DNA of 64,000 nt from Patescibacteria group bacterium (GCA_023474215.1 JAMCYI010000001.1:2836-66835), one strand, 5' to 3'. Counted from the first letter of the stretch, positions 1 to 53,387 are shown. The notes: generated by a model not told the origin, from the sequence alone. A program made the numbers and translations.

Positions 1-50
1 AAGGCGCGCGGGGGCAGGGCGAGAAAATCGTCGAGAACGTCAGGCGCGCC

Positions 51-605
51 GTGGAGGCGGAGAAGCTTCCGGGCGTCGCGGTCTCGATGCGTGAAGTCGA
101 AACGGAGAACGGCGAAAAGCGGCCATTCCTCTCGCTCGCCAACGGCAGGCTCAAGGGGTACGAGATGCTCGTCTCGGCCTCCGATTACGGCAACCGCCTC
201 GACGTCGGCTGGTATCTCGTCTTCGATTCTCCCTGGGCGCTCTTGAAGCGCCGAAGGGCGGCCGAGCAGCCGAAAAATCCGGAGAAGAGTCCCTCCATTT
301 CAGACTCGCTGATTTCGCTCGCGGGGCCGGGTGTGAAGATAGCTCAGGCGGTGGGGCGGGCGGGAGCCGCGTCGGCGGCGAAGGACAGAAAAGCGGATGA
401 AGAGGCGGCCTTCGCCATGGCGAGCGAAGGGCAGGGCTACCGCGATCCGGAAATGCTCACCATAGCCGAGAAGCGCGAGCTCCAGAATTACGTGGGCATC
501 GTGCACGGCATCCTGAAAAGCGAAGTGAAAGCGGCGATGGACGAACTCAAGCTCGATTTCTCCAAAGTGGACACAAAGTCGCAGGGATTCCTGAACGTCG
601 ACTGA
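51..605 (+). CDS. hypothetical protein (184 aa), first gene of 4-gene module; stop overlaps start of downstream ATPase (TGA 603-605 / ATG 607)
   Basis: ORF track; translational coupling with 607..1986; no recognisable motifs. Confidence 0.5.
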   Translation: MEAEKLPGVAVSMREVETENGEKRPFLSLANGRLKGYEMLVSASDYGNRLDVGWYLVFDSPWALLKRRRAAEQPKNPEKSPSISDSLISLAGPGVKIAQAVGRAGAASAAKDRKADEEAAFAMASEGQGYRDPEMLTIAEKRELQNYVGIVHGILKSEVKAAMDELKLDFSKVDTKSQGFLNVD

Positions 606-606
606 C

Positions 607-1986: not shown

Positions 1987-1989
1987 AAC

Positions 1990-2886
1990 ATGGGGATTGG
2001 TAAGGCGCATTTTATAAGGGAAGCCGAGGCGGCGCGCCGGAAGGCGCGCGAGGCGAAGGCGGAAGCCAAGACGGCGCGGCGGCAGTACGAGGAAACGGCC
2101 GCCGGACTCCAGCCGCGGATCGACGAACTGAGCCGCGAGGCGGACGAGCTGGCAGCGAAGTTTAAGCGGCTCTACGAAGAATCGCAGGAGCACTATGACG
2201 CGCGGGAAGGAGGCGCGGCGAAAGAATTAGCCGAGGAAGGCCACGAAGCGGAGGACCGTTGCCGTCGCCTGAACGCCGAAGCGAACGCTCTCCGGAGAGA
2301 GCTCAAGGGACTTTACGACAGATACGAAAACCTGAACAGGGAGGCGGCGCGGTTCGAGGAGGACGCCGAAACGGCCGAGGAGCAGGGGTGGCTCGTGCGG
2401 GAAACCGATGTGACGGGCTTCGGCGGGAGCGTCGCCAAGAGCAATTTCGCGGTCGAGGAATTCCTCGATACGTTCCCGCAGGGGTTGTTCCATAAGATAG
2501 AGCGCATCGAGTACCGCGCCGCGCACGAGGAGTACGAGAATGAAGGGGCGGAAGGGGTAACGAGCAGGCCGAACGAGTTCAGCCGCAAGAGGAAAATAAG
2601 AATATTCCCGCACGATGACGAGGCGCATTTCAAGAAAACCATAAGCCACGAAATAGGCCACGTCGCGTTTTACGAATTCCTGACATGGGAGGAAAAAGAC
2701 AGATGGGCGGCCCTGGCCAAAAAACTGGCGCTGGCCGGCAAGCGCATCAGTGGGTACGCTTGGAATTCCAACGAGCACTTCTGCGAATGTTTCTCCACGT
2801 TTAAAGTGGAGCCACAGGTACTAAAAAAATTCGACGAAGAGGTCTATACTTTTATGGAAGACACATTCAAATCATTGCCAAAATGA
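1990..2886 (+). CDS. coiled-coil protein with C-terminal zincin-like HExxH motif (putative metallopeptidase, SprT/WLM-like guess)
   Basis: N-terminal ~150 aa E/R/A-rich predicted coiled coil; SHEIGHVAFYEF HExxH motif with downstream NEHFCECF; ATG 4 nt after upstream stop. Confidence 0.5.
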   Translation: MGIGKAHFIREAEAARRKAREAKAEAKTARRQYEETAAGLQPRIDELSREADELAAKFKRLYEESQEHYDAREGGAAKELAEEGHEAEDRCRRLNAEANALRRELKGLYDRYENLNREAARFEEDAETAEEQGWLVRETDVTGFGGSVAKSNFAVEEFLDTFPQGLFHKIERIEYRAAHEEYENEGAEGVTSRPNEFSRKRKIRIFPHDDEAHFKKTISHEIGHVAFYEFLTWEEKDRWAALAKKLALAGKRISGYAWNSNEHFCECFSTFKVEPQVLKKFDEEVYTFMEDTFKSLPK

Positions 2887-3230
2887 AAAAACTGAAACTG
2901 TACGGGAAAAAAAGCGCATCGGACGAGATAGACCGCGAGAACGCCGTGGCGGTGATCTATGTTACCGGCAAGAAAGAGCTGATGGTTGAATCGGCGCATC
3001 CGGAGGTAAAGCGCGATATAGAAGAAGCCATTGTGGAGCTCATCAAAAAAGGCGGGCCGAAGGTAAGGCGGTGCGTTGAAAAAAATGGAGAAACAGTCAG
3101 AATCGCCACGCCACAGAAACTCGGCGATGCGGATTTTCTTGAAGCGCTGCGGGAAGAATATCCTTTCTGGTCAAGAGAGTTCAGCGGGTACGAGATAAAT
3201 CACTTGGTTTCAAGGGTGGCAGATGAATAG
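2883..3230 (+). CDS. hypothetical protein (115 aa), last gene of module (ATGA overlap with upstream gene)
   Basis: ORF track; 4-bp overlap coupling. Confidence 0.45.
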   Translation: MKKLKLYGKKSASDEIDRENAVAVIYVTGKKELMVESAHPEVKRDIEEAIVELIKKGGPKVRRCVEKNGETVRIATPQKLGDADFLEALREEYPFWSREFSGYEINHLVSRVADE

Positions 3231-3265
3231 AAGCCGCGGTTGCGGATTAAGAGCGCTTCTGCGTC

Positions 3266-4084
3266 TTACTGGCTCTTCGGCAGCACGACGTTCCCGAGGT
3301 CGATGTCGGCGTTGTCCATGGTGAACGACTTCTGCACCGTGCCGTAGCCGTCAGCCGAAAACTCGAACGTGTAGCTTCCGGCTGGAAATGATCCCAGACC
3401 GCCGTTTTGCAGAGCATTGGCCCAGAGAATGCCCATAGAACCGCAGAAGTCGCCGGCTCGCGAACTCGTTTTCAGGAACCACTCGTCCGAGATATTGCAG
3501 TTCACGGCACCCCACTTGATCCCGTCGAGCTTGGTGCCAACGGCGTTTACGACATTGACCCCGACACTGCCCCAGCGGGTGAAGACAATCTTTCCGAGAT
3601 CAATTCCTTGGGGCGGGAGATAAAATTTCTCCTCGACGGGGGTAAGCCCCGCAAGTCCTCCTTTCTCGGTATCGGGCACTTCCATCATGTACGTTCCGGG
3701 CGGGAGCGTCGTCGAAGGATCGCTCTCGCTCTTCGCCGTCATGGCGAGAACGCCGTCTTTTATCACGGCTCTCCCCGCATACTCGCCCAGAGAGTCGTAT
3801 ATCCGTACATCCGCGCCGTTATCCCACGGATCGGTGATGTCGTCATACGACTTGCCGTACTGGTCGACGACATACGCCGTGACCGTTCCCGGCTTGACCT
3901 GCGGAGCGACCACAGGTTTCGCGGCTGAGACGCTGCTTCCCGGTGCCGCCTGCTTCGGAACAATCGCGGATGGCTGGTTTCCGGCGGACTGGCTCGGGGC
4001 ACCGCTGAAGGGATGGGCGTAATAGACGGACGCGCCCGCGACCACCACGGCGACCGCTACGTAAAGAACTATTTTCGTTTTCAT
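3266..4084 (-). CDS. membrane-anchored/secreted hypothetical protein (272 aa)
   Basis: N-terminal hydrophobic helix MKTKIVLYVAVAVVVAGASVYY; G/S/T/P-rich extracellular region. Confidence 0.55.
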   Translation of the reverse strand: MKTKIVLYVAVAVVVAGASVYYAHPFSGAPSQSAGNQPSAIVPKQAAPGSSVSAAKPVVAPQVKPGTVTAYVVDQYGKSYDDITDPWDNGADVRIYDSLGEYAGRAVIKDGVLAMTAKSESDPSTTLPPGTYMMEVPDTEKGGLAGLTPVEEKFYLPPQGIDLGKIVFTRWGSVGVNVVNAVGTKLDGIKWGAVNCNISDEWFLKTSSRAGDFCGSMGILWANALQNGGLGSFPAGSYTFEFSADGYGTVQKSFTMDNADIDLGNVVLPKSQ

Positions 4085-4094
4085 ATATGTAGAA

Positions 4095-4505
4095 TTATTC
4101 CGACTTTTGCTTCTCCTCTTTCTCCTCCTCCTTTTTCGCCCTGTACGGAATCATAGCCGTGTTGATGCCCATCTTCGCCATCCTTCCCCCTCCGGAGAAA
4201 ATTAGGAAGACGAAGAGGTACTGGAGCAGGGCGTCGCCCAGCTTCTCGGCGTTTTGGCCGACGGCCGCGAGCAGTTCGACGCTGTTCGTCGCCCCGAAAC
4301 GGGCGCCGCTCTCCGTGGCTGCGCCCGGCGCGACGTTGATCTTCGCTTCGAGTATCGAGGGGATGTCGTTCCCGCGGAACACCTGATACCCGTACCAGAC
4401 GCCGAAGCCGACAACGACCGCTCCGGCCGCGATGAGGATCAGGCTCAAGATGGCGTAATATTTTTTCTCGTGTTTCATGTCATTGAGTGTTGCCGACGGT
4501 CTCAC
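4095..4505 (-). CDS. small membrane protein
   Basis: TM helix YYAILSLILIAAGAVVVGFGVWYGY; K/E-rich tail. Confidence 0.45.
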   Translation of the reverse strand: MRPSATLNDMKHEKKYYAILSLILIAAGAVVVGFGVWYGYQVFRGNDIPSILEAKINVAPGAATESGARFGATNSVELLAAVGQNAEKLGDALLQYLFVFLIFSGGGRMAKMGINTAMIPYRAKKEEEKEEKQKSE

Positions 4506-4683
4506 TGTTCAACTCCGAAAGGCACTTCTCGACTTCGCTCGCGGGAACGGTGAACGCGGCGTATGGCTTGTACTCCTTGAAAGCGCAGTCTTCGTAATTG
4601 GGCGCGGGAGCGCTTTTGAGAAAAAAGGCGACAGCGACGAGCGCAGCCACAGCTATCGCTATGAGCCAGATAAGGGATTTCAT
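4480..4683 (-). CDS. small secreted protein (67 aa, signal peptide)
   Basis: MKSLIWLIAIAVAALVAVAFF N-terminus; operon position. Confidence 0.35.
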   Translation of the reverse strand: MKSLIWLIAIAVAALVAVAFFLKSAPAPNYEDCAFKEYKPYAAFTVPASEVEKCLSELNSETVGNTQ

Positions 4684-4916
4684 GTTCTAGACTCCTCCTT
4701 TGTCCGCGCGAGCCGGTTGATCAGGAGGCACACCGCGAAGTACAGCCACAGGGCGTTCCAGAATATCGCGGGCGCTATGAATTTCCGCGGATTATCGGAC
4801 GACAGGAAAAAAATGAATACCCCAGCAATCAGAAAGACGGCGAACAGCACCCAGTACGTAATGTGACGCTTTTTGGAAAGCGGAACTCCGAAAACTAGAC
4901 GTAATACTTTGTTCAT
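4680..4916 (-). CDS. small membrane protein (2 TM)
   Basis: two hydrophobic helices; 4-bp overlap with downstream gene. Confidence 0.4.
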   Translation of the reverse strand: MNKVLRLVFGVPLSKKRHITYWVLFAVFLIAGVFIFFLSSDNPRKFIAPAIFWNALWLYFAVCLLINRLARTKEESRT

Positions 4917-5178
4917 GTGTTCCTAACAAATAAACCCGACCTTTTTCTCTGGCCGGGTTCGACAAACTGCTCTGTGTGAAAACACAAAGCTCCCAGCCAG
5001 TGATGCCTTGCGGCACCCATACAGGTTTCCCCGTATGACCAGTAACGGAGCTCTGACTAGGAGCTTTCTATTCGTTACTGGTTTTTTGAACCCTGCCGCA
5101 GGCTTCCCTACGGGTTAGGTCTCATGTTTAGTTGTATGGAGTCAATATTAACACACTGGACAAGGAGGGCAAGACAAC

Positions 5179-5207
5179 AAAACGGCTACCTAAATATAGC
5201 CGTTTTT
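5179..5207 (+). terminator. hairpin aaaacggcta-cctaaata-tagccgtttt followed by TGC; bidirectional-looking terminator
   Basis: perfect 10-bp stem with A/T tracts on both sides. Confidence 0.5.
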
Positions 5208-5385
5208 GCTTAAAACTCATCTCCTGCGGATGTATAGATAACCGACGAGCAGTCCTAACACAAAGCCGAGGAGGGAGAAATCTATCTTCTCCACGGTTAT
5301 AAAGGAACGCCTGATTCGCTGAAGCGACCAGGAATTCCTGATTGCACTTCAGCGACCTTTGGTTATTTATACAATGAAAACACGA

Positions 5386-6594
5386 TTATGTCAATTGCTG
5401 GAATATGCGACCCATCCTAACGGGGACCACTGCCCCATTCCTCCAAACGCGAAGAGTTACGGGGATATTATTGTTTTTGCGTAGAACGTCGATTAGATAT
5501 TTAAGGGAAAAATGCTGCTCATCAATAATATCCTCATTCACCCCGACAATGACATCCCCTGCTCTAAGTCCGAATTTCTCAGCGATTGATCCAGGTACAA
5601 CGGCGGGGTTTTTCTTGTTGTCCTGGAGGAGCGCACCATGGTCAATTGGTAAATTTCGCTCATTGGCGATACCCGCTGTCAGTGGAATATAGTGTATCCC
5701 GAGCTGTCGCTGGTGCAAATACTCTCTCTTCATCTCTCTAATCGCTTTAGACACTTCGTTCTTAGCTAGCTGTTTCTCGTACTTAGCTATCATCTGTTCC
5801 TCATCATACCCGAACATCTTATAAAACAATTCTTTGCATCCAAGTTTTATCCCTTCCCAAAATCCGACTTCCCGATAATATCCCCGGTGGTGTAACCGAT
5901 CGCCTATCTGTTTGAGAGACGTTTCTAGACGGTCTATAGACTCATCAATTAGTTCTTCTGAACGGTAAAAGGCAGTCCGTTCGTCGTATTCAACGTAGAT
6001 TTCTCTTTGCCATATCGTCTTATAAAGTTCACCTCTAATATTTTGACTCAGGTAGGAGTATCTTATTCGAAACGCCAAATCCTCGAGATGTTGAGACGAT
6101 TCCAGCGTTCTCCGGCCTCTCGACAGCTCAAGATATTCTTTCTCATCATCCGTAAGGGGATATTTCTTACGGAACAGTCCGTCTATTGGTCTACCGAGAT
6201 ACTTATAGTAAGAGCTGCGAGAGTTACCGAGCATTTTTTCCAATGGCTCAACGTAGCGATCAAAAAGGGTGTCTTCCTTGTCAACGTCCTCTCTGGAATC
6301 GTCGTCAAAAAACTCGGAGAGGCTAAGGAGCAAATCCATGACAGGATTGATAATCTCCCTAATAGTCTCCTTCCTTACCTCGCCTTTTTCTTGTAAATCC
6401 GCTGCAGCAGATTCCAATAGTTTCTTGTGTGCTTCTCTTAACTGCTGGATACCAGCGTTGACGATTTCGCTGTCTTTCTGCAGGAGGCGAACTTCGATGT
6501 CTCTTTTGGCGTTTCTCCAAACTACAATAACGCCGAGTACGCCAGCGAAAAATGCGATTACTATGTTAACGAGTAGGTTGAGTAAAGAACCCAC
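5386..6594 (-). CDS. membrane-anchored protein with C-terminal PDZ domain (402 aa), low-GC gene
   Basis: N-terminal TM LLVNIVIAFFAGVLGVIVVW; C-terminal GDVIVGVNEDII...VTLRVWRNG PDZ-like; AT-rich codon usage vs neighbours. Confidence 0.6.
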   Translation of the reverse strand: MGSLLNLLVNIVIAFFAGVLGVIVVWRNAKRDIEVRLLQKDSEIVNAGIQQLREAHKKLLESAAADLQEKGEVRKETIREIINPVMDLLLSLSEFFDDDSREDVDKEDTLFDRYVEPLEKMLGNSRSSYYKYLGRPIDGLFRKKYPLTDDEKEYLELSRGRRTLESSQHLEDLAFRIRYSYLSQNIRGELYKTIWQREIYVEYDERTAFYRSEELIDESIDRLETSLKQIGDRLHHRGYYREVGFWEGIKLGCKELFYKMFGYDEEQMIAKYEKQLAKNEVSKAIREMKREYLHQRQLGIHYIPLTAGIANERNLPIDHGALLQDNKKNPAVVPGSIAEKFGLRAGDVIVGVNEDIIDEQHFSLKYLIDVLRKNNNIPVTLRVWRNGAVVPVRMGRIFQQLT

Positions 6595-6778
6595 ATTCCT
6601 ATTGTATCACGCCTTCTTTGATTTTCTTCCTTGGAAAATGCTATCCTTCTCCTGTCATTACCCGGAATCTTCGGGCATCGCCCGGCTTTCCGGAGTGGGG
6701 CGTCGAGAGTCAACGCTTCGCTCTCCCCCGCGCGGCTTCTCTCAGGCCGCGCTGGGGATGGAATGAGCTGGTACAATG

Positions 6779-6803
6779 AAAGGGTCGTCAGCCCTTTTTT
6801 ATT
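6779..6803 (+). terminator. hairpin aaaggg-tcgtcag-cccttt plus T-run abutting TTG start of paralog ATPase; terminator/attenuator-like
   Basis: stem-loop followed by TTTTTTATTTT. Confidence 0.4.
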
Positions 6804-8072
6804 TTGGAAATCCTCTCCATCGGCAAAGCCGCCTCCCGCTCAGGAAGCGTCGAGTTCGGCATCAAATCTCCCGACCGGCGGCACCACATGTACCTCGTGG
6901 GCCAGACCGGCACCGGCAAGTCCACCTTCCTCAAGAATGCGGCGGTTCAAGACTTGCGGGCTGGGCGCGGCCTTGCGGTAATCGATCCTCATGGCGCGCT
7001 TGTCGAGGACATCCTGCGGTTCATTCCCAGGCGCCGGACGGGCGAGGTCGCGTATTTCAATCCGACTGACGCCGATCATCCCGTCGGCCTTAATATCCTC
7101 GAGGCGAGGAGCGAGAACGAGCGGAACCTGGTCGCCTCGTCCCTCATCTCGATTTTCAAATATCTCTGGAAGGACTTCTGGGGTCCTCGGCTGGAGCATG
7201 TTTTCCACAATGCAATCCTCGCCCTAATGGACACGCCGGATTCGACGCTCCTCAGCGTGTACCGGATGCTTGCCGACGACGCCTTCCGCGCGAAGGTCGT
7301 CGGGAGGGCGAAGGACCCGGTCGTGAGGTTCTTCTGGGAAGAGGATTTCGAGAAATATCCGGCGCGGTTCAAGAAGGAAGTGACGTCGCCGATCCAGAAC
7401 AAGATCGGGCAGCTCCTCACGAACAGCTGCATTCGGAACATCGTCGGGCAAGCCGAGAGCACGCTCGACCTGCGGTTCCTGATGGACAACCAGAGGATTC
7501 TCTTTGTAAATCTCGCCAAAGGCGTGATCGGCGAGGATAAGGCAAACCTCCTAGGATCGGTGCTCGTGACGAAACTGTACCTCGCGGCGCTCGAGAGGCA
7601 GACAGTGCCGGAGGACAAGCGCCGGGATTTCTACCTTTATATCGACGAATTCCAGAATTTTTCGACGGAAGCGTTTCCGTCGATGTTGTCCGAATCCCGC
7701 AAGTACCGGCTGAACCTGATTCTGGCGCACCAGTATCTCCGCCAGCTCCCGGAGAGCGTGCGCCACGCCGTCTTCGGGAACGTCGGGACGCTCTCCGCCT
7801 TCCGCGTCGGCGGGCTCGACGCAGAGGAGCTGGCCAAGGAATTCCAGCCGGACTTCGAGCGGGACGATCTCACCCATATCGAGAACTACCGCTTCTGCAC
7901 AAGGCTCATGATCGACGGCAAGCGGTCAAAGCCGTTCTCGGCTGAAACGCTCCCGCCTCCCCGCCTGCGGGGCGACGAGGCGGACGCCGAGACGGTCATA
8001 AGGATTTCTCAAGAGCGTTTTGCTTCAAAACGTGAAGACGTGGAACAAGCGGTCGAAAAATGGTTCGCCTGA
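6804..8072 (+). CDS. TrwB/TraD/VirD4-family P-loop ATPase, paralog of 607..1986 (apparent TTG start)
   Basis: GQTGTGKST...VIDPHGAL, YLYIDEFQNF, RKYRLNLILAHQ; roughly 40% identity to first copy by eye. Confidence 0.7.
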   Translation: MEILSIGKAASRSGSVEFGIKSPDRRHHMYLVGQTGTGKSTFLKNAAVQDLRAGRGLAVIDPHGALVEDILRFIPRRRTGEVAYFNPTDADHPVGLNILEARSENERNLVASSLISIFKYLWKDFWGPRLEHVFHNAILALMDTPDSTLLSVYRMLADDAFRAKVVGRAKDPVVRFFWEEDFEKYPARFKKEVTSPIQNKIGQLLTNSCIRNIVGQAESTLDLRFLMDNQRILFVNLAKGVIGEDKANLLGSVLVTKLYLAALERQTVPEDKRRDFYLYIDEFQNFSTEAFPSMLSESRKYRLNLILAHQYLRQLPESVRHAVFGNVGTLSAFRVGGLDAEELAKEFQPDFERDDLTHIENYRFCTRLMIDGKRSKPFSAETLPPPRLRGDEADAETVIRISQERFASKREDVEQAVEKWFA

Positions 8073-8418
8073 GGCGAATCCGTTTTTCGCGTCGCGATCT
8101 CGGCTGCGCGGCCTCGAGCTTTTTATTTTGCCTTCCCCCCACCGCGCGCAGCGAAAAGAGAAAAGCTCCGGCGAAGGAGAGCGGAGGCCCGAGGATGCCC
8201 CGAGCCCGAAGCGGAAGCGAGGGGTGAAGGGGCAATGAGGACATGTTGTCGGGGGCCGGAGCCGCAAGAACGGAGAGAAAATATTCCGTCGTTTGCGGGC
8301 GGATCCGCCTTCCGGAGGCAGTCGTTCCGGAACGACCCCTTGAACGACCCCTTTGCGAATCAGAAATTTCTGGTAAAATAGGTTCTGATACCGGCGCGTA
8401 AACTCACTAAACCAAAGG

Positions 8419-8446
8419 CCGGTGACTCTTGTCACCGGTTTTTGGT
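8419..8446 (+). terminator. rho-independent terminator ccggtgac-tctt-gtcaccgg + TTTTT
   Basis: perfect 8-bp GC stem and T-run; flanked by direct ggttctgat. Confidence 0.7.
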
Positions 8447-8632
8447 TCTGATGTTTTCAAGGAGAGGATAAGAACCTTTGAAAGGGGGTCGGGGAAGAGC
8501 GGAAGCGCTTCCCCGTGGAGGAATGAGTCCGCGAAAGCGGACGGACTCAAAACCGAGGGTTTTGAGGGAGCGAAGCGACAGGTTCCATATCCTTCCCTGC
8601 ACACACTTTGAAAAATCGGCCTTCTAAAACTC

Positions 8633-8660
8633 GACCAGCTCACTGCTGGTCTTGTTTTTT
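8633..8660 (+). terminator. terminator gaccagc-tcact-gctggtc + cTTGTTTTTT (overlaps copy 1 of 35-bp direct repeat)
   Basis: 7-bp stem + T-run. Confidence 0.6.
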
Positions 8661-8673
8661 GAAGATTCGAGCC
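8639..8673 (+). repeat. 35-bp exact direct repeat copy 1 (ctcactgctggtcttgttttttgaagattcgagcc)
   Basis: identical to 10314..10348. Confidence 0.9.
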
Positions 8674-9070
8674 AGGTCGACATTCAACCATAACCCTAGG
8701 CGATAAGAGCACTTCTAGGTGGTATAATAACAATGACTCAGGGGGGGTCAGTTTTGTTTATCGCGAAAACAAGATAGCTATGAAGTTACCAAAGAGGGTA
8801 GATGTAAAAAATTCAAAAGGTCGATATTATATTCTAACCTAACTCTCTTTTCACTACCATAAAGTGGGGGGGCGGCTAAGGTAAACATTATGAGTAAAGA
8901 AAACCCTCGAACGGAGCGGGAAAAGAAAAGAGCCCGTGAGGAAAAACAAATAAAAAAGACGGGGGACAAATTAAAGGCAAAGCGTCTCCAGCGGCATCAG
9001 CATCCGCTACCGCCACATTAAAGGTGTACATTGAAGAAATAAAAGCCGGATTAACTTGTTAACAAGTCAT

Positions 9071-9616
9071 ATGAGAAAAAAGATTGTTGTCGGCGCAATA
9101 ATTTTGGTGGCGATAGTCATAGCGTACATCGGTGTCAGAGTAGCGTATAACCAGTATGAATGGAATCATAGTAAAGCTACGATAGCTAGTCCTGCCGTAG
9201 TAAACCCAACTCTTACAGGTAGCGTTACCACTGTTGGAAACGGCATAAGCATTACAGCTGATGCCGTGCAATCATCCGGTGTTATTAGTCAGACTTCTGC
9301 TGGAGATAATTCCGTGCTCAACTTAGTCGGTCCGGCGTTAGTGAAAATAACGGTAAACACTTCAGGTAGTAACTGCGCACTGGCTAATGCGTTGGGCGGG
9401 AGCTTCATGTATGGTCAATTCAAAACGCCAATTAGCGGATCTGCCGAAAAAACAGTCAGTTTTCCAGCGGATGGGATAATGTTCATGAGCGGCGTGTGTA
9501 TGGATTCCAGCGGCAATCCTATTGGTTTACCCAATAGTTTGATCGTGGAAACCGTCTCTAAAGGTGAGACGTTGGATAACCACGGCGCTCTTCAGACGGT
9601 TAACATGCCATGGTGA
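9071..9616 (+). CDS. membrane-anchored extracellular protein, paralog A
   Basis: N-terminal TM KKIVVGAIILVAIVIAYIG; shares VQSSGVI / CMDSSGNP motifs with 9703..10296. Confidence 0.55.
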   Translation: MRKKIVVGAIILVAIVIAYIGVRVAYNQYEWNHSKATIASPAVVNPTLTGSVTTVGNGISITADAVQSSGVISQTSAGDNSVLNLVGPALVKITVNTSGSNCALANALGGSFMYGQFKTPISGSAEKTVSFPADGIMFMSGVCMDSSGNPIGLPNSLIVETVSKGETLDNHGALQTVNMPW

Positions 9617-9702
9617 ACACTGCCGAAATGTAAGGGTTTGCTCTAATTTTATCCTTCCCTTCCTACGGCACATTATCATTACCCCATACAAATAATTAGA
9701 TC

Positions 9703-10296
9703 ATGAACGAAAAACCGAGAAAGAAAATATGGAGACATTGGTGGTTCTGGACGTTGATAGCGGTTTGTATAATGGCCTTGGCGGTCGCAGTGGTGCGCCT
9801 GCGCAACCAGAACAAGGTGCATTTGCCCAGTGGTCTTCCACAGAAACCTGTCAGTATGCCGTTTACTGGTACGTATGCCGCCTCGTCAACCGGCTATGCC
9901 AGCATATCACTGAGTGTTTTACAGTCATCCGGCATCATCAAAGCCGGAAGTTATAACGGTAAGGTGGGTACGCCCATCGGAGTATCTGCGGAAATAATGG
10001 GGCCAGCCGAACTTGATGTGAGAATCGATTCGATGTCCCAGGTTTGTATAATCTCGCATTCACTAGATATTACAACCGGGAGGGGCACATCATTAACCCA
10101 TGCGGTTGAGGTAACGCTCAACGTGCCCCCAGGCGGATTCATTAACTACTACGTCTTGTGCAAGGATTCGAACGGCAGCTACCAACTTTCTGAGTTAACG
10201 GTTAATGTATGGAATCCTGCCACGTACGGTACGGAGGCGATGTCCAAAGAGGCATTGACGCAAATTAACCTACCTGGCCTTAACAGCGTTCCTTAA
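9703..10296 (+). CDS. membrane-anchored extracellular protein, paralog B
   Basis: N-terminal TM WWFWTLIAVCIMALAVAVV; LQSSGII, CKDSNGS motifs. Confidence 0.55.
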   Translation: MNEKPRKKIWRHWWFWTLIAVCIMALAVAVVRLRNQNKVHLPSGLPQKPVSMPFTGTYAASSTGYASISLSVLQSSGIIKAGSYNGKVGTPIGVSAEIMGPAELDVRIDSMSQVCIISHSLDITTGRGTSLTHAVEVTLNVPPGGFINYYVLCKDSNGSYQLSELTVNVWNPATYGTEAMSKEALTQINLPGLNSVP

Positions 10297-10313
10297 GGGC
10301 ACTAATATAAAGG

Positions 10314-10348
10314 CTCACTGCTGGTCTTGTTTTTTGAAGATTCGAGCC
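10314..10348 (+). repeat. 35-bp exact direct repeat copy 2
   Basis: identical to 8639..8673. Confidence 0.9.
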
Positions 10349-10508
10349 GGCAATTTTCGGCAATAGGGGAGAGAAGCCACTTTTTGGCGATGGCGAGCGA
10401 TTTCTCTTTTTGAATACTTAGCTTTTCACCCTCCGCCAAAAAGTTCGAGCCGAAACTGAATCTACACCTTGAAAGTCGCCTCAGTAGAGTATCTATCACT
10501 CATATTTA

Positions 10509-11024
10509 CTAGATATCGTCTTGCCCAATTCCCATTTCTTTTCTCATTTCTTTTTTGACGTCTGCTAAGGCGGCCAGTAATTTCGTAATATGTTCTTCCT
10601 TTTGCAAACCAGAAAGACCTTGAGATTTTCCGACTAATTGAGCAAAGACCCTCGCTTTTTCTTCTAGCTCTTCTTCACCAAATAAGTTGATGGGGGACAT
10701 TGCGTTGCGAGTTTCTTCGCTATCTTTATCTCTAGCCTCTTTCATTTCCTTGGCAAGCGTCTCAAGTTGTTCTTGGGAAAAATTAGAGGTATCTATTTCT
10801 TCTTCAATCTGGATATCCCTAATGGTCTTGATGAAGTGAGAAAGAGCGTTTACGTAGGCCGTCTTCTTCGCGTCGAAAAGCCTCTGCTTCCTTTGCTCTT
10901 CTTTCTGAAATTTGATTTGGATTTGCAGGCGTCTCTCCTCGGATTTGGTTTGTCTACTTGTTGCCCATGCGGCGATGATGCCTCCAGATATGGTCCCCAA
11001 GAGAGTGAAAATTGCTATAAGCAT
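10509..11024 (-). CDS. membrane-anchored coiled-coil protein (171 aa)
   Basis: N-terminal TM then K/E/Q-rich helical region. Confidence 0.45.
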   Translation of the reverse strand: MLIAIFTLLGTISGGIIAAWATSRQTKSEERRLQIQIKFQKEEQRKQRLFDAKKTAYVNALSHFIKTIRDIQIEEEIDTSNFSQEQLETLAKEMKEARDKDSEETRNAMSPINLFGEEELEEKARVFAQLVGKSQGLSGLQKEEHITKLLAALADVKKEMRKEMGIGQDDI

Positions 11025-11118
11025 ACCTTTTATCTCATTAATTCTCCGACTTTTAGTCGTGCCTGGAAGAGGGCACGGGATATGCTGTTATCTTAACATT
11101 TTTAGCTATAATGATGGC

Positions 11119-11703
11119 ATGGATCCACTTGAGTTTTTAAAGAGTAGGGTTAAAGAAGGGTCAGAGGAACAGCTTAATAATGTAATTGCTAAGGGTGTAT
11201 TGAAACTGGGCGACGAGCAGATTGCCACGGTCGCATTCGTTTTTTGGCTGGTCTATATGGCCGAAACTGAATTAAACGCCGCTACGAGCCAGTCGTGGGC
11301 CATCGTGGAGAAGTTCGCCCCTCAAGGTGTAAAAGAGATGGTAGCGGACAGGGTGCAAAAATTAGCAGGAGGACGCAAAAAGTTAGATCTCAAAAATCTT
11401 GAGTATTTCTCAGATAAGATTAGGGTCTACGAGGCACTACTCGGAGACAACAAACTAAAGAGACTTCTATGGAAATTGAACGATATAAGAAACGACCTGA
11501 GCCACAATCGCGTTAGCAATCTTAGCTACGATGGTGAGTCACTCTCATTAAGGAGCACCAAGGAAAAAATTTTGATTGATTATTTTGACGCTGTTTTGAA
11601 TAGCGATGTCACTACATCGGACACCTGGAACTCTCTTAGCGAAGATAACAAAAAGGTGGTGAAGTCGATTGCGCGAGAGGTCAAAAAACAGGGCCTCAGT
11701 TAA
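11119..11703 (+). CDS. hypothetical protein with HEPN-like R-N-x3-H motif (KLNDIRNDLSHNR)
   Basis: RNDLSH fits HEPN Rx4-6H with polar residue after R; TATAAT at 11106-11111; low-GC island. Confidence 0.4.
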   Translation: MDPLEFLKSRVKEGSEEQLNNVIAKGVLKLGDEQIATVAFVFWLVYMAETELNAATSQSWAIVEKFAPQGVKEMVADRVQKLAGGRKKLDLKNLEYFSDKIRVYEALLGDNKLKRLLWKLNDIRNDLSHNRVSNLSYDGESLSLRSTKEKILIDYFDAVLNSDVTTSDTWNSLSEDNKKVVKSIAREVKKQGLS

Positions 11704-12311
11704 ATCGGCATTATTCTAGCTCCGCGCCGGGCGAATTCTTTGGATATCCTTTCCAAACCATCTAGGTCAGCTTGCGTTGCAACACTGGCATCCTTGAATA
11801 CATCTGCATGCATAAGGGTAAAGCCATCTATAAAAAGCTTGATTAGTGTGTCGGGAGATATGAACGCAACAGTATGGCCGAGTTTTTTAAATTTCTCATC
11901 CCAGTCCCTTATAACGTCCGTGCTTTCGGAACCGTTAGGCATATTTATGGAAACTCCATTTTCTGGCTCTGGCAAACCGAATGCGTGGACGATTGCACAA
12001 CGGAATTTATACAAAAACTTTTCGTTGACCAGTTTAAGATAAGGGTGGGTTTTATAGGTCGCATTGCTTTCGATAACGCAATATTTTTTCATCCACTCTT
12101 CCAAGAGAGGACGGCCGCCCAGACTGCGGTTATAGAAAGCGTTGTATAAGTTACTGGCGATTTCCAAAAACGAAAATGCTACTAACGCCCTCACCCTAAC
12201 GAACTGCTGATCTTTTCTGAGAACTCCAATTGCGCCGGATATCTCCTCAACCATTTCCCCTAGTCTATCATCGACATCTTTTTTCACCTCCTCGTATCTC
12301 TTGATATCCAT
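11700..12311 (-). CDS. hypothetical protein (203 aa) convergent with and overlapping the HEPN-like gene by 4 bp
   Basis: ORF track; no recognised motif. Confidence 0.45.
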   Translation of the reverse strand: MDIKRYEEVKKDVDDRLGEMVEEISGAIGVLRKDQQFVRVRALVAFSFLEIASNLYNAFYNRSLGGRPLLEEWMKKYCVIESNATYKTHPYLKLVNEKFLYKFRCAIVHAFGLPEPENGVSINMPNGSESTDVIRDWDEKFKKLGHTVAFISPDTLIKLFIDGFTLMHADVFKDASVATQADLDGLERISKEFARRGARIMPI

Positions 12312-12549: not shown

Positions 12550-12951
12550 ATGAGCGAGGGGGAGAAAATCATAAATTGGCTAGAGAGAAATTGGTTTAGA
12601 TTAGGTGTACTTCTAATTCTGATTGCGATCGGAGCCGCTATTGTCTATTACATTGCAATCTTCTTACCGGACAGGCAATCTCAACTGGATCAGGAGAAGA
12701 AGGATGCTGTTATAGCCAACACGGTGTCCAGAAATAAATGCCTAGCTAATGCGGCGAGTGATTATCGAGACCTTTTAAAAGAGAACACCTACAGTGATGG
12801 AACCTTCAAGAGTACAAACGCTGAGCAGTATGTAGAAAATAAGTATACAGATGAGAAAGACGAATGTTTCAAGGAATACCCAATTAACGCGGATATCCAA
12901 TTGCCCTACGCGGACCCAACGAACATCTTCTATAATTTGCTTAACAAATAG
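12550..12951 (+). CDS. small membrane-anchored protein
   Basis: TM WFRLGVLLILIAIGAAIVYYIAIFL. Confidence 0.5.
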   Translation: MSEGEKIINWLERNWFRLGVLLILIAIGAAIVYYIAIFLPDRQSQLDQEKKDAVIANTVSRNKCLANAASDYRDLLKENTYSDGTFKSTNAEQYVENKYTDEKDECFKEYPINADIQLPYADPTNIFYNLLNK

Positions 12952-15184: not shown

Positions 15185-15249
15185 TACCAATTTTTATTTG
15201 CCCGCTACAATGCCAATGTAGCGGGTCTTTCATTTGATATAATCAAGGA

Positions 15250-15834
15250 ATGAAAAACAAAGAGGGGTTTTCGAAAATAGCGACCCAACTCGCCGTACTC
15301 GTCGTCATCGTCGCCGCGGGAGGGATCTTATGGTATCTCACGTCGGGGACGCCGCAAGCAAACCTGCCAACGGAAATATCGTTGCCATCAACGACAACAT
15401 GGATGACATTCAACGATCCGGCATTCGGATTCACGTTCCAATATCCGAGCGAATGGGGAACACCGACGACCACGCTTCTTAGCACACGGAGAAGTATCTC
15501 TTTTTCGCACAATAACGACTTCATCGTGGAAGACGGGGGATACTACAATCAGCCGCTCGGCAGGATGCTGACGCTTCCGGAAATAGTGACCGGCTTGCAA
15601 GGCGAAGCGACTGGCTCGATGAGCGCCGCAATCACGTTCGGCGGCGAGCCGGCGACGGCGGTCGTCATGCCCCTCGAGAACGGCGGAGAGGAGGTGGACA
15701 TTTTTGCGAGCGACAAAACCTCAAAAATCAACATAATCCACATCGGGTATGCATTCGACGCAACTCAAGCTGCCGCCGCCCAAACCCTGCTCAATGAAAT
15801 ACTCTCCACGTTTAAATTCACACCGGCGAAATAA
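15250..15834 (+). CDS. secreted protein with pilin-like N-terminus (MKNKEGFSKIATQLAVLVVIV)
   Basis: class-III-signal-like N-terminus shared with 51891..53387. Confidence 0.5.
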   Translation: MKNKEGFSKIATQLAVLVVIVAAGGILWYLTSGTPQANLPTEISLPSTTTWMTFNDPAFGFTFQYPSEWGTPTTTLLSTRRSISFSHNNDFIVEDGGYYNQPLGRMLTLPEIVTGLQGEATGSMSAAITFGGEPATAVVMPLENGGEEVDIFASDKTSKINIIHIGYAFDATQAAAAQTLLNEILSTFKFTPAK

Positions 15835-16199: not shown

Positions 16200-16481
16200 T
16201 TAAAAATCCGATTTCTTCAAAGCGTTCGCTTGTTCGGGATCGCGTTTCTTGATGTATTCGAAAAGGAGCGCGGCATGCTCTTTTTCTTCGTCGCGGTTAT
16301 GAACCAGAATCTTCCGGAGCTCGCCGTCTTTCGTCGCTTCTATCCGCTGGTTGTACCAGTTGATCGCCTCGAATTCCTCGACGAACGACTGCCTCGCCCT
16401 TTCCAAATCCTTCACTTGATCGGGAAGCTTATCCCAATTCTCTTGGTAGGTTGCCATACCATCATTATACCACACAATCAC
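16200..16481 (-). CDS. small ferritin-like (EncFtn/Flp-like) protein, last gene of znu operon
   Basis: EEFEAINWY and DEEKEH (ExxH) motifs; 4-bp overlap with znuB. Confidence 0.35.
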   Translation of the reverse strand: MIVWYNDGMATYQENWDKLPDQVKDLERARQSFVEEFEAINWYNQRIEATKDGELRKILVHNRDEEKEHAALLFEYIKKRDPEQANALKKSDF

Positions 16482-17338
16482 TTTCTCTCAGTCAAAGAAA
16501 AGTTGGTTATCTTTTGAAGACCGCGCGTGAGGAGATAAAGCAGGAAGACGGCGCTCGCGATGAAGAAACTTACTGGATACGGCTCATAGAACGAAACGAA
16601 AAGACCAAACCACGTGACGAGGAGTGCAATCGCGACCGAAATCATCATACCGCGGAAAGGTTTTTTGGAAAGCCTCATAGCGATCGCGGCGGGCGTCACC
16701 ATAAGCGCAAAAATTAAAAGAACGCCGACCACTTGGACGGCAATGGACGTTGCAACAGCGACGAGGAGCATAAATAAGATGCCAATCCAGATCATTGAAA
16801 GTCCCTTCGCTTCGGCGACATCCTCATCAAGCGATGAAAAGAGCAAAGGATGATAGATGAGAGAAACGGCAAGGAGAATAACAAGCCCGGCGACAAGTGT
16901 AATGGTAACGTTTGCAGAACTAATACCGAGAATTTCCCCAAAAAGAAGCGAGTAGGCTTCCGTAGCATAGCCGCTGTACAAACTAATAAAGAGAACACCG
17001 AGACCGAGCATGAAAGCAAGCACGGTGCCGATTTCGACGTCGCGGCTTGCCGCCTTTCTTTCCAAGAGAGCCATGATAATGCCGCCGCTGCTCGTGAAAA
17101 CCAAAAGCCCGAAGATAGGATTTACACCCATTAAGACCGCGCCGGCTGCTCCCGCAAAGCCGATGTGGGAAAGAGCATGGGCAGCAAAAGAGGATCTTCG
17201 AAGAACGACGAAATACCCCACGATGCCGGCAATGATTGCCACAATCGTGCCGGCTTCGAACGCGTGAAGCATGAAACCATACCCGAGCATAAGCTTGAGG
17301 TCCTGAATAATATTAAAGCTGAAAGTAATGGGATTCAT
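16478..17338 (-). CDS. znuB: metal (Zn/Mn) ABC transporter permease
   Basis: ABC-3 family multi-TM pattern; operon with ATPase and TroA-like SBP. Confidence 0.85.
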   Translation of the reverse strand: MNPITFSFNIIQDLKLMLGYGFMLHAFEAGTIVAIIAGIVGYFVVLRRSSFAAHALSHIGFAGAAGAVLMGVNPIFGLLVFTSSGGIIMALLERKAASRDVEIGTVLAFMLGLGVLFISLYSGYATEAYSLLFGEILGISSANVTITLVAGLVILLAVSLIYHPLLFSSLDEDVAEAKGLSMIWIGILFMLLVAVATSIAVQVVGVLLIFALMVTPAAIAMRLSKKPFRGMMISVAIALLVTWFGLFVSFYEPYPVSFFIASAVFLLYLLTRGLQKITNFSLTERK

Positions 17339-18147
17339 AGTTGGTGTTCGTGCGTATGAATATGGCCTATTTCTTCAACACCGAGAACGGCAATGCGACC
17401 TTGGGAATTTTTTAAAACTTCGACCGGCGTTTCATAGAGCGAAGTAAGAAAGTGAGAATTCAAGATTTCCTCCGGTTTCCCGATGGCAACCTTCCCGTTC
17501 GCAACATAGACGATGCGATCAAGGACGGGGAGGAGGGGATTGATGTCATGGGCAATAAGAAGCGCGGTGATATTCCGCGATTTTGTGACATTCCTGATGA
17601 GTTGGACAAGCTCACCCTGGCGGCGGATATCCAAGCTCGCCAACGGTTCATCAAGGAGGAGAAGATCGGGATCGGAAACAAGCGCCTCCGCGAGGAAAAC
17701 GCGCTGAAGCTCACCGCCCGAGAGAGACCCAAGGGATCGCTCGGAAAGATGTTCCGCACCGACATCCCGCATCATCATGCGGGCTTTTTCACATTCTCCT
17801 CGACAAGGGATGACGAATCCCCATTCGCCACCCGAAATCCCCAACTTAACGAGTTCGATTGCCTCTACGCTCATCTCATTATCGATAAGATGTTTTTGGG
17901 GAACGTACCCGACGCGAGGATTGCCGCGCTTCGGTGGCTCGTCGAGAATGGACAGCTCGCCCGCCGACGGCCGCTTGAGGCCGAGAAGTAATCGAAAGAG
18001 CGTCGTTTTGCCGGCGCCGTTCGGCCCCAAGACCGCCACAAATTCGCCGCGGCCGATCGAGAAATTCGCATCTTGCCAAATAATTTTCCCGTCATATGAG
18101 GCGGCGAGGCTCTTCGCCGTTATCATGCCTTCCGATGTTTTGTTCAT
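17335..18147 (-). CDS. znuC: metal ABC transporter ATP-binding protein
   Basis: GPNGAGKTTL, LSGGELQRV, LLLLDEP. Confidence 0.9.
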   Translation of the reverse strand: MNKTSEGMITAKSLAASYDGKIIWQDANFSIGRGEFVAVLGPNGAGKTTLFRLLLGLKRPSAGELSILDEPPKRGNPRVGYVPQKHLIDNEMSVEAIELVKLGISGGEWGFVIPCRGECEKARMMMRDVGAEHLSERSLGSLSGGELQRVFLAEALVSDPDLLLLDEPLASLDIRRQGELVQLIRNVTKSRNITALLIAHDINPLLPVLDRIVYVANGKVAIGKPEEILNSHFLTSLYETPVEVLKNSQGRIAVLGVEEIGHIHTHEHQL

Positions 18148-19067
18148 TGTGATTGCAAAGCGTTTTCAATCGATGTGATTTCGCCGTTCATCCAATCCTC
18201 GAACGAAAGAGTGGGCGGCTCGATGGTTTCGGTGATGGCAACGACGGGAATGCCCTCCGACGCAGCCAGTTTTTTCATGTTGTCCGTCAGTGGCGTTACC
18301 GTCTGTTTATTATAAACCAAAACTTTCACCGTGCCGCTTTTCAGTTGGTTTTCAAACTCGACAACCGCCGCCGGCGAAGGGCTGTTGCCTTCAGCGACGG
18401 CTTGGATGAATTCCGGCGGAGAGACCAAATCGAGTCCCGATGCTTGGGCAAGATATGAGAAGATATCCTCGGTCGCGGCGACTTCTGCCCCGGCAAATTT
18501 TGCCTTCATGTCGGCAATGTTCGATTGGTAAACCGCAAGCGACGACATGAGCCTCGCATAGTTTGCAGTATAATAAGAAGCATGCGCGGGATCGAGATAC
18601 GCGAGATCAGCTTCCATTTGCTTTGCCACCCTGTTTACGTACTCGGGATTGTACCAAAAGTGAGGATTGTCTCCCGACTTTTTACCGAGAAAACGGGCAA
18701 CATCCAAAACCACGCGACCCGGGTTGGATCCAGCGCCCACGAGTTTTCCCATCCAGCTGTCGTATCCGGCGCCGTTTTCAATCACGTAATTCGCCGTCGC
18801 GACCGCGCGCGCCGTTGAAGCATTGCTCTCATATTCATGCGGATCGGCATTCGGGTCCGAAACGATACTCAAAACATCCACCTGAGAACCGCCGATTTGG
18901 GAAACCAAACTGCCCCAAAAATTTTCTGCGGCAACGATTCGAAGAACGCCGTTTGATGCCGTCGGCGCCGGAGAAGTGGGATGTCGCATCGCGAGGACAT
19001 ACGCGATAGTCGCAATGATCACTACACCAACGAGGGGATACAGCACCTTAAAGAGATCTTTTGTCAT
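18144..19067 (-). CDS. znuA: metal ABC transporter substrate-binding protein (TroA/ZnuA family)
   Basis: N-terminal anchor; NPHFWYNP motif typical of cluster-9 SBPs. Confidence 0.85.
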   Translation of the reverse strand: MTKDLFKVLYPLVGVVIIATIAYVLAMRHPTSPAPTASNGVLRIVAAENFWGSLVSQIGGSQVDVLSIVSDPNADPHEYESNASTARAVATANYVIENGAGYDSWMGKLVGAGSNPGRVVLDVARFLGKKSGDNPHFWYNPEYVNRVAKQMEADLAYLDPAHASYYTANYARLMSSLAVYQSNIADMKAKFAGAEVAATEDIFSYLAQASGLDLVSPPEFIQAVAEGNSPSPAAVVEFENQLKSGTVKVLVYNKQTVTPLTDNMKKLAASEGIPVVAITETIEPPTLSFEDWMNGEITSIENALQSQ

Positions 19068-51354: not shown

Positions 51355-51891
51355 ATGAAAAAGATCGTCATTGCATCGAAGAATCCGGTGAAGATGAATG
51401 CGACCCTCGCGGGATTCAAAAAAATGTTCCCGGATGAGGAATTCGCGATCGAAGGCGTCTCCGTCCCTTCGGGTGTCTCAGACCAGCCAATGACCGATGC
51501 GGAGACCTTCCTTGGAGCAAAGAACCGGGCGGAAAACGCTTCAAAGGAACGGACCGATGCGGACTTTTTTGTCGGTATTGAAGGCGGCGTCGAGGAAAAG
51601 AACGGCGAAATGGAATCGTTCGCGTGGGTCGCGATAAAGGCGAAGGATAACGGCTTCGGCAAAGGAAGAACGGGAACGTTTTTTCTTCCTCCGCGGGTCG
51701 CGGAACTGATAAAACAAGGGAAGGAACTCGGCGAAGCGGATGATATCGTCTTCCAACGCACGAACTCGAAGCAGGAAAACGGCGCAATTGGCATCCTGAC
51801 CGGCAACGTCATCGACCGGACGACGTACTATACGGATGCCGTCGTGATCGCGCTCATTCCGTTCAAAAATAGGGAGCTCTACCTGCTATAA
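51355..51891 (+). CDS. inosine/xanthosine triphosphatase (YjjX-like non-canonical NTPase)
   Basis: MKKIVIASKNPVK N-terminus typical of YjjX/Maf/Ham1 fold. Confidence 0.55.
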   Translation: MKKIVIASKNPVKMNATLAGFKKMFPDEEFAIEGVSVPSGVSDQPMTDAETFLGAKNRAENASKERTDADFFVGIEGGVEEKNGEMESFAWVAIKAKDNGFGKGRTGTFFLPPRVAELIKQGKELGEADDIVFQRTNSKQENGAIGILTGNVIDRTTYYTDAVVIALIPFKNRELYLL

Positions 51892-53387
51892 TGAAACTGA
51901 TGAAAAATGAAGGGGGGTTTTCAAAAATAGTCACTCAGCTCATGGTACTGGGGGTTATCGTCATAGGAGGAGTGGTTTACTTCGCTTTTGAAATGCCGGC
52001 GACAAATCCGCAAGGATCGGCACCAACGGCACTAGGCCTTACTGCGAATCAAATAAAAACGGCGGAATATACGCTGCCTGATTTTGGTGGACCTTTCACG
52101 TTCGACGCAGACGATACCGCAACGACTTCGGCTGTCGAAGGGAAGGGGAGCGCCGGAGCGACTTTGACATATACCGCAACACTCATGAGCGATAAAACGG
52201 CTTTCGGCGATCTGAACGGCGACGGCGCGATCGATGCTGTCGTCCCGGCCGTCGAACAGCTGGGCGGCAGTGGGAGCTTTTACTATCTCGTCGCGTTCCT
52301 GAACGACAACGGAACACCCAAGGAAGCTGCTGCCGTACCCCTCGGCGATCGCATCATCGTGAATTCGATAACCATAAAGGACGGCGAGATTGCAGTCGCT
52401 ATGCTGGATCACGGCCCAAATGACGGCATGGCGCGGGCGACGCTGCCGGTCACAAAATATTTTGTCCTGCAGAACAGCAATCTCGTCGAATCCTCCAAAA
52501 CCCCGCAAATAAACACGACAACAACCGGAGAATCCTCGGCATGGAAAACGTACCTAAACAGCCAATATGGTTTCACTTTTCAATATCCTGAAGGCTGGCA
52601 AATTTCAGACACAAGCGAAATGAAGGACGGGAGAAAATGGCCGAGCGTCAATATAACAAGCCCGCTCCGCTATAACCTGCCCGGATACGACGGAGTGCCA
52701 ACCGAGTATCGAATACTCATCTTCTTCCCTACGGCAAGCGGCACTTCCCCTTCGACTCGGGATATGGAGCCGATAGCCGGCTTCGGGAGTCCGGATCCCC
52801 AATTCGGACATCAATCGGCCTGGAACATAGAAGTACCGCGGAATGTTCTTGAAGCATCAAGCGAATACCAAGACGGTCAGCAAATAATGTCTTCATTCAA
52901 GTTTATCCCTTCGCCGCCGCTTTCCGTCTATCCGTCTCCGAACGGCAAGATAGATGTTTATACCATAACTTCAACCACCCTCGAAAGCATCTTATCCGTA
53001 AACGACGCTTCGACGACCGGTATTCTTTCGAGATTAAATCTCACCTCGGAGGACGGAGAGCACGGCGCCATAGCCGACAAGTTACTATGGACGCCGGATT
53101 CAAAGTTTTTCATCTTAGCGACGCATCTTTCCGGAGGACATATGCCCTGGAGCGAACCCACGTATATCTACGTGGTATCAAAGAATATGTGGTACAGTCT
53201 CGATGATTTTCTCGGCAAGCAAAATCTGGCGGCCGCCGGCGACGTGAAGCTTGCAACCGACGACAAATTGATTTTGGAGCCTTGGATCACGGGTGGAGGA
53301 AGCGGGGAACCGACAACCACCATCATCGATATATCATCCTTGCCATTCAACGAAGTGCAGCCGGTTACTTCCACGCCCTACAGATAA
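51891..53387 (+). CDS. large secreted protein with pilin-like N-terminus (MKNEGGFSKIVTQLMVLGVIVIGG)
   Basis: N-terminus paralogous to 15250..15834. Confidence 0.5.
   Translation: MKLMKNEGGFSKIVTQLMVLGVIVIGGVVYFAFEMPATNPQGSAPTALGLTANQIKTAEYTLPDFGGPFTFDADDTATTSAVEGKGSAGATLTYTATLMSDKTAFGDLNGDGAIDAVVPAVEQLGGSGSFYYLVAFLNDNGTPKEAAAVPLGDRIIVNSITIKDGEIAVAMLDHGPNDGMARATLPVTKYFVLQNSNLVESSKTPQINTTTTGESSAWKTYLNSQYGFTFQYPEGWQISDTSEMKDGRKWPSVNITSPLRYNLPGYDGVPTEYRILIFFPTASGTSPSTRDMEPIAGFGSPDPQFGHQSAWNIEVPRNVLEASSEYQDGQQIMSSFKFIPSPPLSVYPSPNGKIDVYTITSTTLESILSVNDASTTGILSRLNLTSEDGEHGAIADKLLWTPDSKFFILATHLSGGHMPWSEPTYIYVVSKNMWYSLDDFLGKQNLAAAGDVKLATDDKLILEPWITGGGSGEPTTTIIDISSLPFNEVQPVTSTPYR

Follow-up and report, generated by a model that had tools for sequence, protein, structure and literature searches.

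Two proteins encoded in the 64,000-nucleotide stretch of DNA that we analyzed (the window) carry a shared N-terminus that we read, with a probability of about one half, as an uncleaved Sec/SRP-type signal-anchor tethering envelope proteins. These proteins, P1 (15250..15834, + strand, 194 aa) and P2 (51900..53387, + strand, 495 aa), were described in the original prediction as unrelated secreted proteins whose common N-terminus resembled a prepilin-type (class III) signal, possibly marking pseudopilin-like substrates of a type IV pilus. As it stands, the evidence makes them related, probably membrane-anchored envelope proteins, not pseudopilins, and what we add is for the most part a clarification. 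The surface proteome of Patescibacteria, which grow attached to other microbes, is largely unannotated. The N-terminal module described below offers an easy way to list those of their surface proteins that are tethered to the membrane, and it warns against pilin calls made from the leader alone.

The window is bacterial, with an L10 leader, three tRNAs and one LOOT RNA, and it matches about 355.9-419.9 kb of the 465 kb contig DAIBZB010000001.1 (GCA_027423645.1), a Patescibacteria group MAG on which the exact P1 protein is also present. Its genes include mraZ/mraW/ftsL/PBP/murF, secA, uvrABC, lepA, gyrB and many small membrane-anchored proteins, a content typical of Patescibacteria MAGs and one in which no type IV pilus genes were evident.

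P1 begins MKNKEGFSKIATQLAVLVVIVAAGGILWYL, and its orthologues form four clusters at 74-96% identity. The leader or n-region, MKNKEG (15250..15267, +), has M1, K2, K4, E5 and G6 invariant across five orthologues, and 13 of residues 1-14 are invariant in the P1 family versus about 61% over the whole protein. The hydrophobic segment F7-L30 (FSKIATQLAVLVVIVAAGGILWYL; 15268..15339, +) is a predicted transmembrane helix, placed at residues 4-31 by AlphaFold (low confidence) and overlapping the top 19-residue hydropathy window, which begins at residue 10. It is followed by a Pro/Thr/Ser-rich linker, T31-T50 (15340..15399, +), which is coil in the AlphaFold model, and by a predicted extracytoplasmic PsbP-like domain running from WMTFNDPAFGFTFQYPSEW to ILSTFKF (15400..15831, +), which aligns with residues 215-248 of P2. 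The AlphaFold run on five sequences gave a mean pLDDT of 43.7, which made the P1 model unusable for a fold search.

For P2, the original prediction gave the ORF 51891..53387, of which the reading frame and the end were confirmed and the start was moved to 51900. The true start is most likely this second ATG (MKNEGGFSK...), since it is the start annotated by NCBI (P0001) and a perfect TATAAT (51887..51892, +) lies 7 nt upstream of it; with this start, the leader is six residues long in P1 and P2 alike. Translated from 51900, the protein begins MKNEGGFSKIVTQLMVLGVIVIGGVVYFAF and consists, in order, of a leader, a helix, a linker, a beta-rich domain, a PsbP-like domain and a C-terminal region. 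The leader, MKNEGG (51900..51917, +), has M1, K2, N3 and G6 invariant across four orthologues. AlphaFold predicts a helix over the hydrophobic residues F7-F30 (51918..51989, +; pLDDT 87-89 for residues 11-30), then coil over the linker, residues 31-48 (51990..52043, +; pLDDT about 57 for 31-40), and then, with pLDDT above 90, a beta-rich DLNGDG (FG-GAP-like) domain at residues 49-200 (52044..52499, +), which has a weak match to FG-GAP_3 in Pfam. The PsbP-like domain occupies residues 215-335 (WKTYLNSQYGFTFQYPEGW ... SSFKF; 52542..52904, +), and the C-terminal region, residues 336-495 (52905..53384, +), has low pLDDT. Searching the PDB with the P2 model by Foldseek gave no match at E <= 0.001, a weak beta-propeller likeness and, among the matches listed, no pilin; phmmer of P2 against PDB sequences returned nothing meaningful, and the C-terminal region was without a match.

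The shared N-terminus is real. The motif MKN(K)EG-FSKIxTQLxVLxVIV is present in both proteins, whose ORFs we confirmed on the + strand; BLASTP aligned P1 1-45 with P2 4-50 with 23 of 48 positions identical (E 2e-8), and hhalign of the P1 and P2 orthologue profiles gave 96% probability over the N-terminal stretch. Across all six reading frames of the window, the pattern G-[hydrophobic]-S-[KR]-[ILVM]-x(1,2)-Q matched at the P1 and P2 sites only. The proteins are also related, contrary to the original prediction. P1 31-81 aligns with P2 201-248 (BLASTP, E 3e-6) over another shared block, W-x-T-[FY]-x5-GFTFQYP-x2-W, which is the start of the predicted PsbP-like domain in both; the two domains also terminate alike, in S-[ST]-F-K-F. 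P1 had no Pfam match, PsbP_2 included, and P2 matched PsbP_2 (PF18933) at E 0.0012 with 19.4 bits, below the 27-bit gathering cut-off, so both domains are PsbP-like by weak similarity only.

A third family member was found in the syntenic genome GCA_021791395.1, where the gene next upstream of the P2 orthologue encodes P0044 (MKNKEGSTKIITEL, 361 aa, two PsbP-like domains), which bears the same N-terminus as P1 and P2. Genes with the motif also stand side by side, in tandem pairs or more, at the metagenome loci L143, L154, L165/L178, L173, L187 and L130, which indicates local tandem expansion of surface proteins. The P1/P2 family would thus expand by tandem duplication and domain accretion, and the segment that P1 and P2 share would stem from common descent within one paralogous family; tandem duplication suffices alone to explain the shared N-terminus.

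The same N-terminus was recovered on other proteins by profile and metagenome searches. We compared a 40-position N-terminal profile with 1.84 billion representative proteins and obtained 19 matches at E <= 1e-3, the real ones being different proteins with the same N-terminus, among them MKQKEGFSQIAVIL, MKHKEGFSQIAVIL, MRYKDGFSQVALGL, MKNQKGFAPIVIIL...GGGVYYY and MNNQEGFAPIVIIL; the profile found only two junk matches in a 5.8-billion-protein index. We then scanned metagenome DNA with the pattern M-[KN]-x-x-[KE]-G-F-[AS]-[K/N/T/Q/H/P]-I-x3-[LF]-x2-(codon with T at position 2), which gave 64 sites, 56 of which were kept by a hydrophobic-stretch filter, and these comprised 46 distinct N-termini after removal of duplicates and of two sequence types of another kind, namely a Sec signal of classical type and a FATIFSLF protein that recurred. 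Their consensus is M[KN]x[NQ]KGFAPIxIxLIxxAVLAVGGxAYYxGKSS. Positions that the pattern left unconstrained were also conserved: G23 in 41 of 46, G24 in 29, A26 in 22, Y27 in 32, Y/F28 in 27 and K31 in 25.

These results show FSKIxTQL to be a narrow variant of a broader Patescibacteria-type N-terminal module, which consists of M-x4-G-F-(A/S)-(P/K/Q)-I, about 15 hydrophobic residues, G-G-x-x-Y-Y and a polar linker and occurs on differing cargo. The cargo, assessed with Pfam in 50 motif proteins at E <= 0.001, comprised PsbP_2 (6), the Ig-like Kre9_KNH (3), Germane (2) and CarboxypepD_reg (2), with one each of PG_binding_1, PG_binding_3, Transglut_core, Inhibitor_I42 and TIG. All carriers that bear a taxon name are Patescibacteria. 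The idea of a lineage-specific signal found support in the varied cargo and the taxonomic range; a role for pseudopilin or type IV pilus substrates was not supported. Gly6 is invariant in our alignments A1, A3, A5 and A8, and Phe7, Ile10 and Leu14 are near-invariant; the residue following Gly6 (+1) varies across members among F/I/V/S/A, and the leader has six residues in nearly all members and seven in L165/L178 and P0057. The searches themselves favored Gly, so the evidence from Gly6 invariance is partly circular. Similarly, the N-termini of P1 and P2 score 51 and 57 bits against the HMM built from A5, an alignment of these N-termini in which both proteins are themselves rows. In literature searches covering class III/SPIII signals in Patescibacteria and the motif strings, we found no account of this module. 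As a side observation, one cargo family, with a CxxEAKxCPDGSxVGRTGPNC domain, is shared by L139 (41-604, -), L141, L164 and L177, and the L139 member is without the GG-YY and linker, its helix running directly into ...LAAAVAC, which could be a lipobox-like variant.

Under the signal-anchor reading, we infer that the short basic cytoplasmic leader (MKNKEG) and the 22-24-residue helix would insert N-in/C-out and would remain in the membrane uncleaved, the helix beginning at Gly-Phe and finishing at Gly-Gly-x-x-aromatic. The Pro/Thr-rich stalk would then keep both the beta-rich and the PsbP-like domains at the outside of a single-membrane cell, with the anchor taking the role of the lipid anchor on homologous proteins in other bacteria. 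The observed features are a basic n-region, a helix of 22-24 residues, the absence of a lipobox and, as a possible signal peptidase I site, Gly-Gly at 23-25. The architecture of P2 (helix 7-30, 18 residues of coil, confidently predicted beta domain) is of the same kind, and a stalk in this position is readily understood in a tethered protein. As in type II single-pass signal-anchors, there are a basic n-region, a helix of about 22 residues, aromatics at both interfaces, a flexible stalk and no AxA site, and other proteins of the window are built likewise. The weak Pfam/NCBIfam matches of 34 N-termini were also to single-pass anchor regions, for example FliL, CD1107-like and LPXTG.

The homologues of P2 bear on how its cargo is held. 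Those of the beta-rich domain outside the P2 group are lipoproteins, with the lipoboxes LSGC (P0014), VAAC (P0015), LMGC (P0017) and LSSC (P0019), whereas the homologues P0008, P0016 and P0018 have N-terminal anchor helices without Gly-Phe. Motif helix, plain helix and lipoprotein signal thus appear to be interchangeable anchors on the same cargo. Lipoprotein (class II) signals resemble the module in their presumed tethering to the outer face, but differ in the lipobox Cys, which P1 and P2 do not have. Within the window, three proteins without the KEGF leader have the same kind of helix end followed by a polar linker (3266-4084, AGASVYY; 4095-4505, GFGVWYGY; 12550-12951, IGAAIVYY), so the G..YY end is not specific to the motif. 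The putative binding protein encoded beside an ABC-3 permease (18144-19067, -) has a transmembrane helix and a PTSPAPTAS linker and no lipobox, which suggests that helix anchors may replace lipid anchors in this organism.

Several observations weigh against the signal-anchor reading. The invariant Gly6 and near-fixed leader length are unusual for ordinary n-regions, subject to the circularity noted above, and the module is unlike an ordinary signal-anchor in being so conserved over unrelated cargo (Gly6, Phe7, Ile10, Leu14, Gly-Gly and leader length). That residues 1-14 are conserved more strongly than the protein as a whole in the P1 family, and that a motif gene lies beside an apparent pilus cluster (locus L112, below), may point the same way, and the Gly-Gly could be a signal peptidase I site.

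The first two of these observations would suit a class III signal that lacks Glu5, in which PilD would cut after Gly6 on the cytoplasmic side, perhaps methylating Phe7, and the protein would stay helix-anchored or pass to type IV filament machinery. We regard this as a tentative and rather unlikely alternative. A class III signal is defined by Glu5, a hydrophilic leader of 6-26 residues with Gly as its last, and a following tract of about 21 residues, most of them hydrophobic (PMC4471445). The leaders of P1 and P2 are six hydrophilic residues with Gly at -1, and of the 21 residues FSKIATQLAVLVVIVAAGGIL, 17 are hydrophobic or small, the others including S, K, T and Q; the likeness extends to Phe at +1. 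Cleavage depends critically on Gly(-1) but can proceed without Glu5, which is required for assembly (PMC4471445), so that the absence of Glu5 does not exclude processing. Moreover, PilD is widespread in CPR bacteria (PMC6744442), and an invariant Gly6 with a nearly fixed leader and a variable +1 is the pattern expected of a prepilin-peptidase site, although this evidence is in part circular.

Genome searches gave the class III alternative further support. When GTDB genomes were scanned at the DNA level for residues 1-10 in the form M-K-x-[KEQ]-[KE]-G-F-[SA]-x-I, the matches listed were mostly genuine pilins of the form MKxQKG^FSLIELLIVV (the caret marks the cut site), largely from Acidobacteriota; over these 10 residues the module is indistinguishable from real prepilin leaders. 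In a Candidatus Saccharimonadia MAG (L057, 4114-4629, +), a protein with the N-terminus MKKQKG^FAIIEVLLVLVLVAVIGFGGWYIW followed by a polar linker is a hybrid, joining the canonical Glu5 to a GG-aromatic helix end (GFGGWYIW) and scoring 37.6 bits on the module HMM. In a GTDB MAG (L112, 1-7885, -), a motif gene (MKNQKGFANIV..., linker, PsbP-like domain) ends a cluster of PilC, PilM/N/O-like and pilin-like genes, all named from sequence alone. This is the sole pilus linkage among about 61 loci, and one of the five Patescibacteria-type GTDB loci among the matches listed.

Archaea offer a parallel. The signal of Sulfolobus binding proteins is a short basic leader ending in Gly or Ala, with polar residues after the cut site and no requirement for Glu5, and these proteins have a Ser/Thr-rich linker before an unrelated soluble domain, as in the module. 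If the module is cleaved, the sugar-binding proteins of the Sulfolobus bindosome, non-pilin cargo bearing class III signals, would be its best functional analogue and a precedent (PMC3047682). The bindosome differs in being archaeal and in depending on PibD and a dedicated Bas assembly system, and we found no bindosome-type partner genes here.

The evidence against a class III signal begins with the residues that follow the Gly. The original prediction was right that +5 is not Glu, being Ala in P1 and Val in P2, and Glu was at +5 in none of the 46 metagenome N-termini. P1 and P2 have Lys at +3 and Gln at +7, and nearly every member has either a polar residue or Pro at +3. Profile searches agree. 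Neither P1 nor P2 matched N_methyl (PF07963) or TIGR02532 (GFxxxE) at E <= 1; N_methyl matched none of the 50 full-length motif proteins at E <= 0.001 and, at E 0.3, two of the 34 N-termini; and the best 25 of 61 families for those N-termini at E <= 10 did not include the archaeal Pilin_N (PF07790). Conversely, the module HMM gave members 40-70 bits and canonical pilins 12-19 bits.

Structure and gene context weigh against it too. A type IV pilin has a helix of about 50 aa whose second half (alpha1C onward) packs on a beta-sheet head, giving a lollipop fold. Such a helix was not seen in the models, in which the P2 helix gives way to coil after residue 30 and the low-confidence P1 helix to a Pro-rich linker; in the module, the helix terminates near residue 30 in Gly-Gly-x-x-aromatic and leads into a disordered stalk, and the cargo consists of ordinary envelope domains. 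The window and a 10 kb flank, together 74 kb of the source genome, were without genes for pilins, GspE-type ATPase, PilC/M/N/O or prepilin peptidase, as were L189/L190, and no canonical pilin, GspE-type ATPase or PilC/M/N/O was present at any of the 56 metagenome loci (262 kb, 313 ORFs). The homologues P0008, P0016 and P0018 also do without the Gly. What survives of the class III likeness is the leader ending in Gly-Phe and the hydrophobic tract; Glu5, the HMM match, the long helix and the pilus linkage are missing, and with them the case for pseudopilins or type IV pilus substrates. It is unlikely, in our estimation, that M-x4-G^F-(A/S)-(P/K/Q)-I...GG..YY is a Patescibacteria-wide Glu5-less class III signal through which prepilin peptidase processes dozens of envelope proteins per lineage (peptidoglycan-binding, PsbP-like, Ig-like and others). 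If true, bacteria would have their own equivalent of the archaeal bindosome, one that might tie surface display to the abundant type IV pilus machinery of these episymbionts, and if the module is a substrate of prepilin peptidase, the known bacterial role of that enzyme would widen considerably.

The Gly-Gly leads to a different alternative, a cleavable Sec signal with an n-region at residues 1-9, an h-region at 10-22 and a Gly-Gly(-x-Ala) c-region, from which a soluble protein would start at residue 25-27. The frequent G23, G24 and A26 would place small residues at -3/-1 (A-V-G^G, V-G-G^ or G-V-A^Y), and signal peptides are typically as long as this segment, 24-26 residues in all. However, hydrophobic or aromatic residues continue 4-6 positions beyond the Gly-Gly (Y27, Y/F28), making a helix of 22-24 residues, the length of a membrane span. 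The long Pro/Thr/Ser/Asn stalk would have no obvious role on a released protein and suits a tethered one, and homologous cargo is lipid-anchored elsewhere. The motif N-termini also look unlike the one clear signal peptide that the window has (62253-63326, ...APGASA^HE), in which the h-region is short and the site is ASA^H. We consider cleavage of this kind distinctly improbable.

The DNA around the two starts bears on when the likeness arose. P1 and P2 agree at 69% of the first 81 nt, in runs of at most 9 nt, and different synonymous codons encode 6 of the 17 residues that are identical, so the similarity is old and maintained. Recent recombination or gene conversion, which would have copied a promoter and 5' end between otherwise unrelated genes with the peptide unconstrained, is very improbable and already contradicted: the likeness does reach upstream to the TATAAT box of both genes, but conversion would need a long near-identical tract, the box is common in the window and the peptide is retained in distant homologues of other genomes (P0005, P0009 and P0044).

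In P1, the perfect TATAAT (15238..15243, +) lies 6 nt 5' of the ATG in a leaderless-type promoter arrangement. Across the window, 10 ORFs of 50 aa or more have a perfect TATAAT 5-9 nt before the ATG, namely those with ATGs at 11119, 13332, 15250, 18582, 51355, 51900, 53440 and 56215 on the + strand and at 16457 and 63326 on the - strand. The arrangement is thus not specific to P1 and P2, and a special promoter common to the two was ruled out. There is no room for a Shine-Dalgarno sequence between these TATAATs and their ATGs, which suggests that leaderless mRNAs may be common in this organism. Upstream of P1, a hairpin (GCCCGCTACA / TGTAGCGGGT) followed by a T-rich run (15200..15226, +) is likely the terminator of the upstream MGS-domain gene; with a terminator there, P1 would be its own transcription unit.

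Elsewhere in the window, positions 1-12000 may be an integrated mobile element. A PDZ protein and two ATPases of the TrwB/VirD4-like coupling-protein type (607-1986 and 6804-8072) are encoded in this region, and the LOOT RNA (RF03000, 88.6 bits; 5002-5121, -) lies within it. GC is 0.59 in the first 4 kb and about 0.50 elsewhere, and the exact-protein matches for the 607-1986 product were to short Logan contigs only. P1 adjoins an EncFtn-like gene and a metal ABC importer composed of an ABC-3 permease, an ATPase and the putative binding protein (16200-19067, -), and in another genome the P2-like P0009 (L189, 12021-14049) adjoins ABC-3, ABC_tran and FUR; these metal-gene neighbors may be a coincidence or may reflect a link to metal homeostasis.
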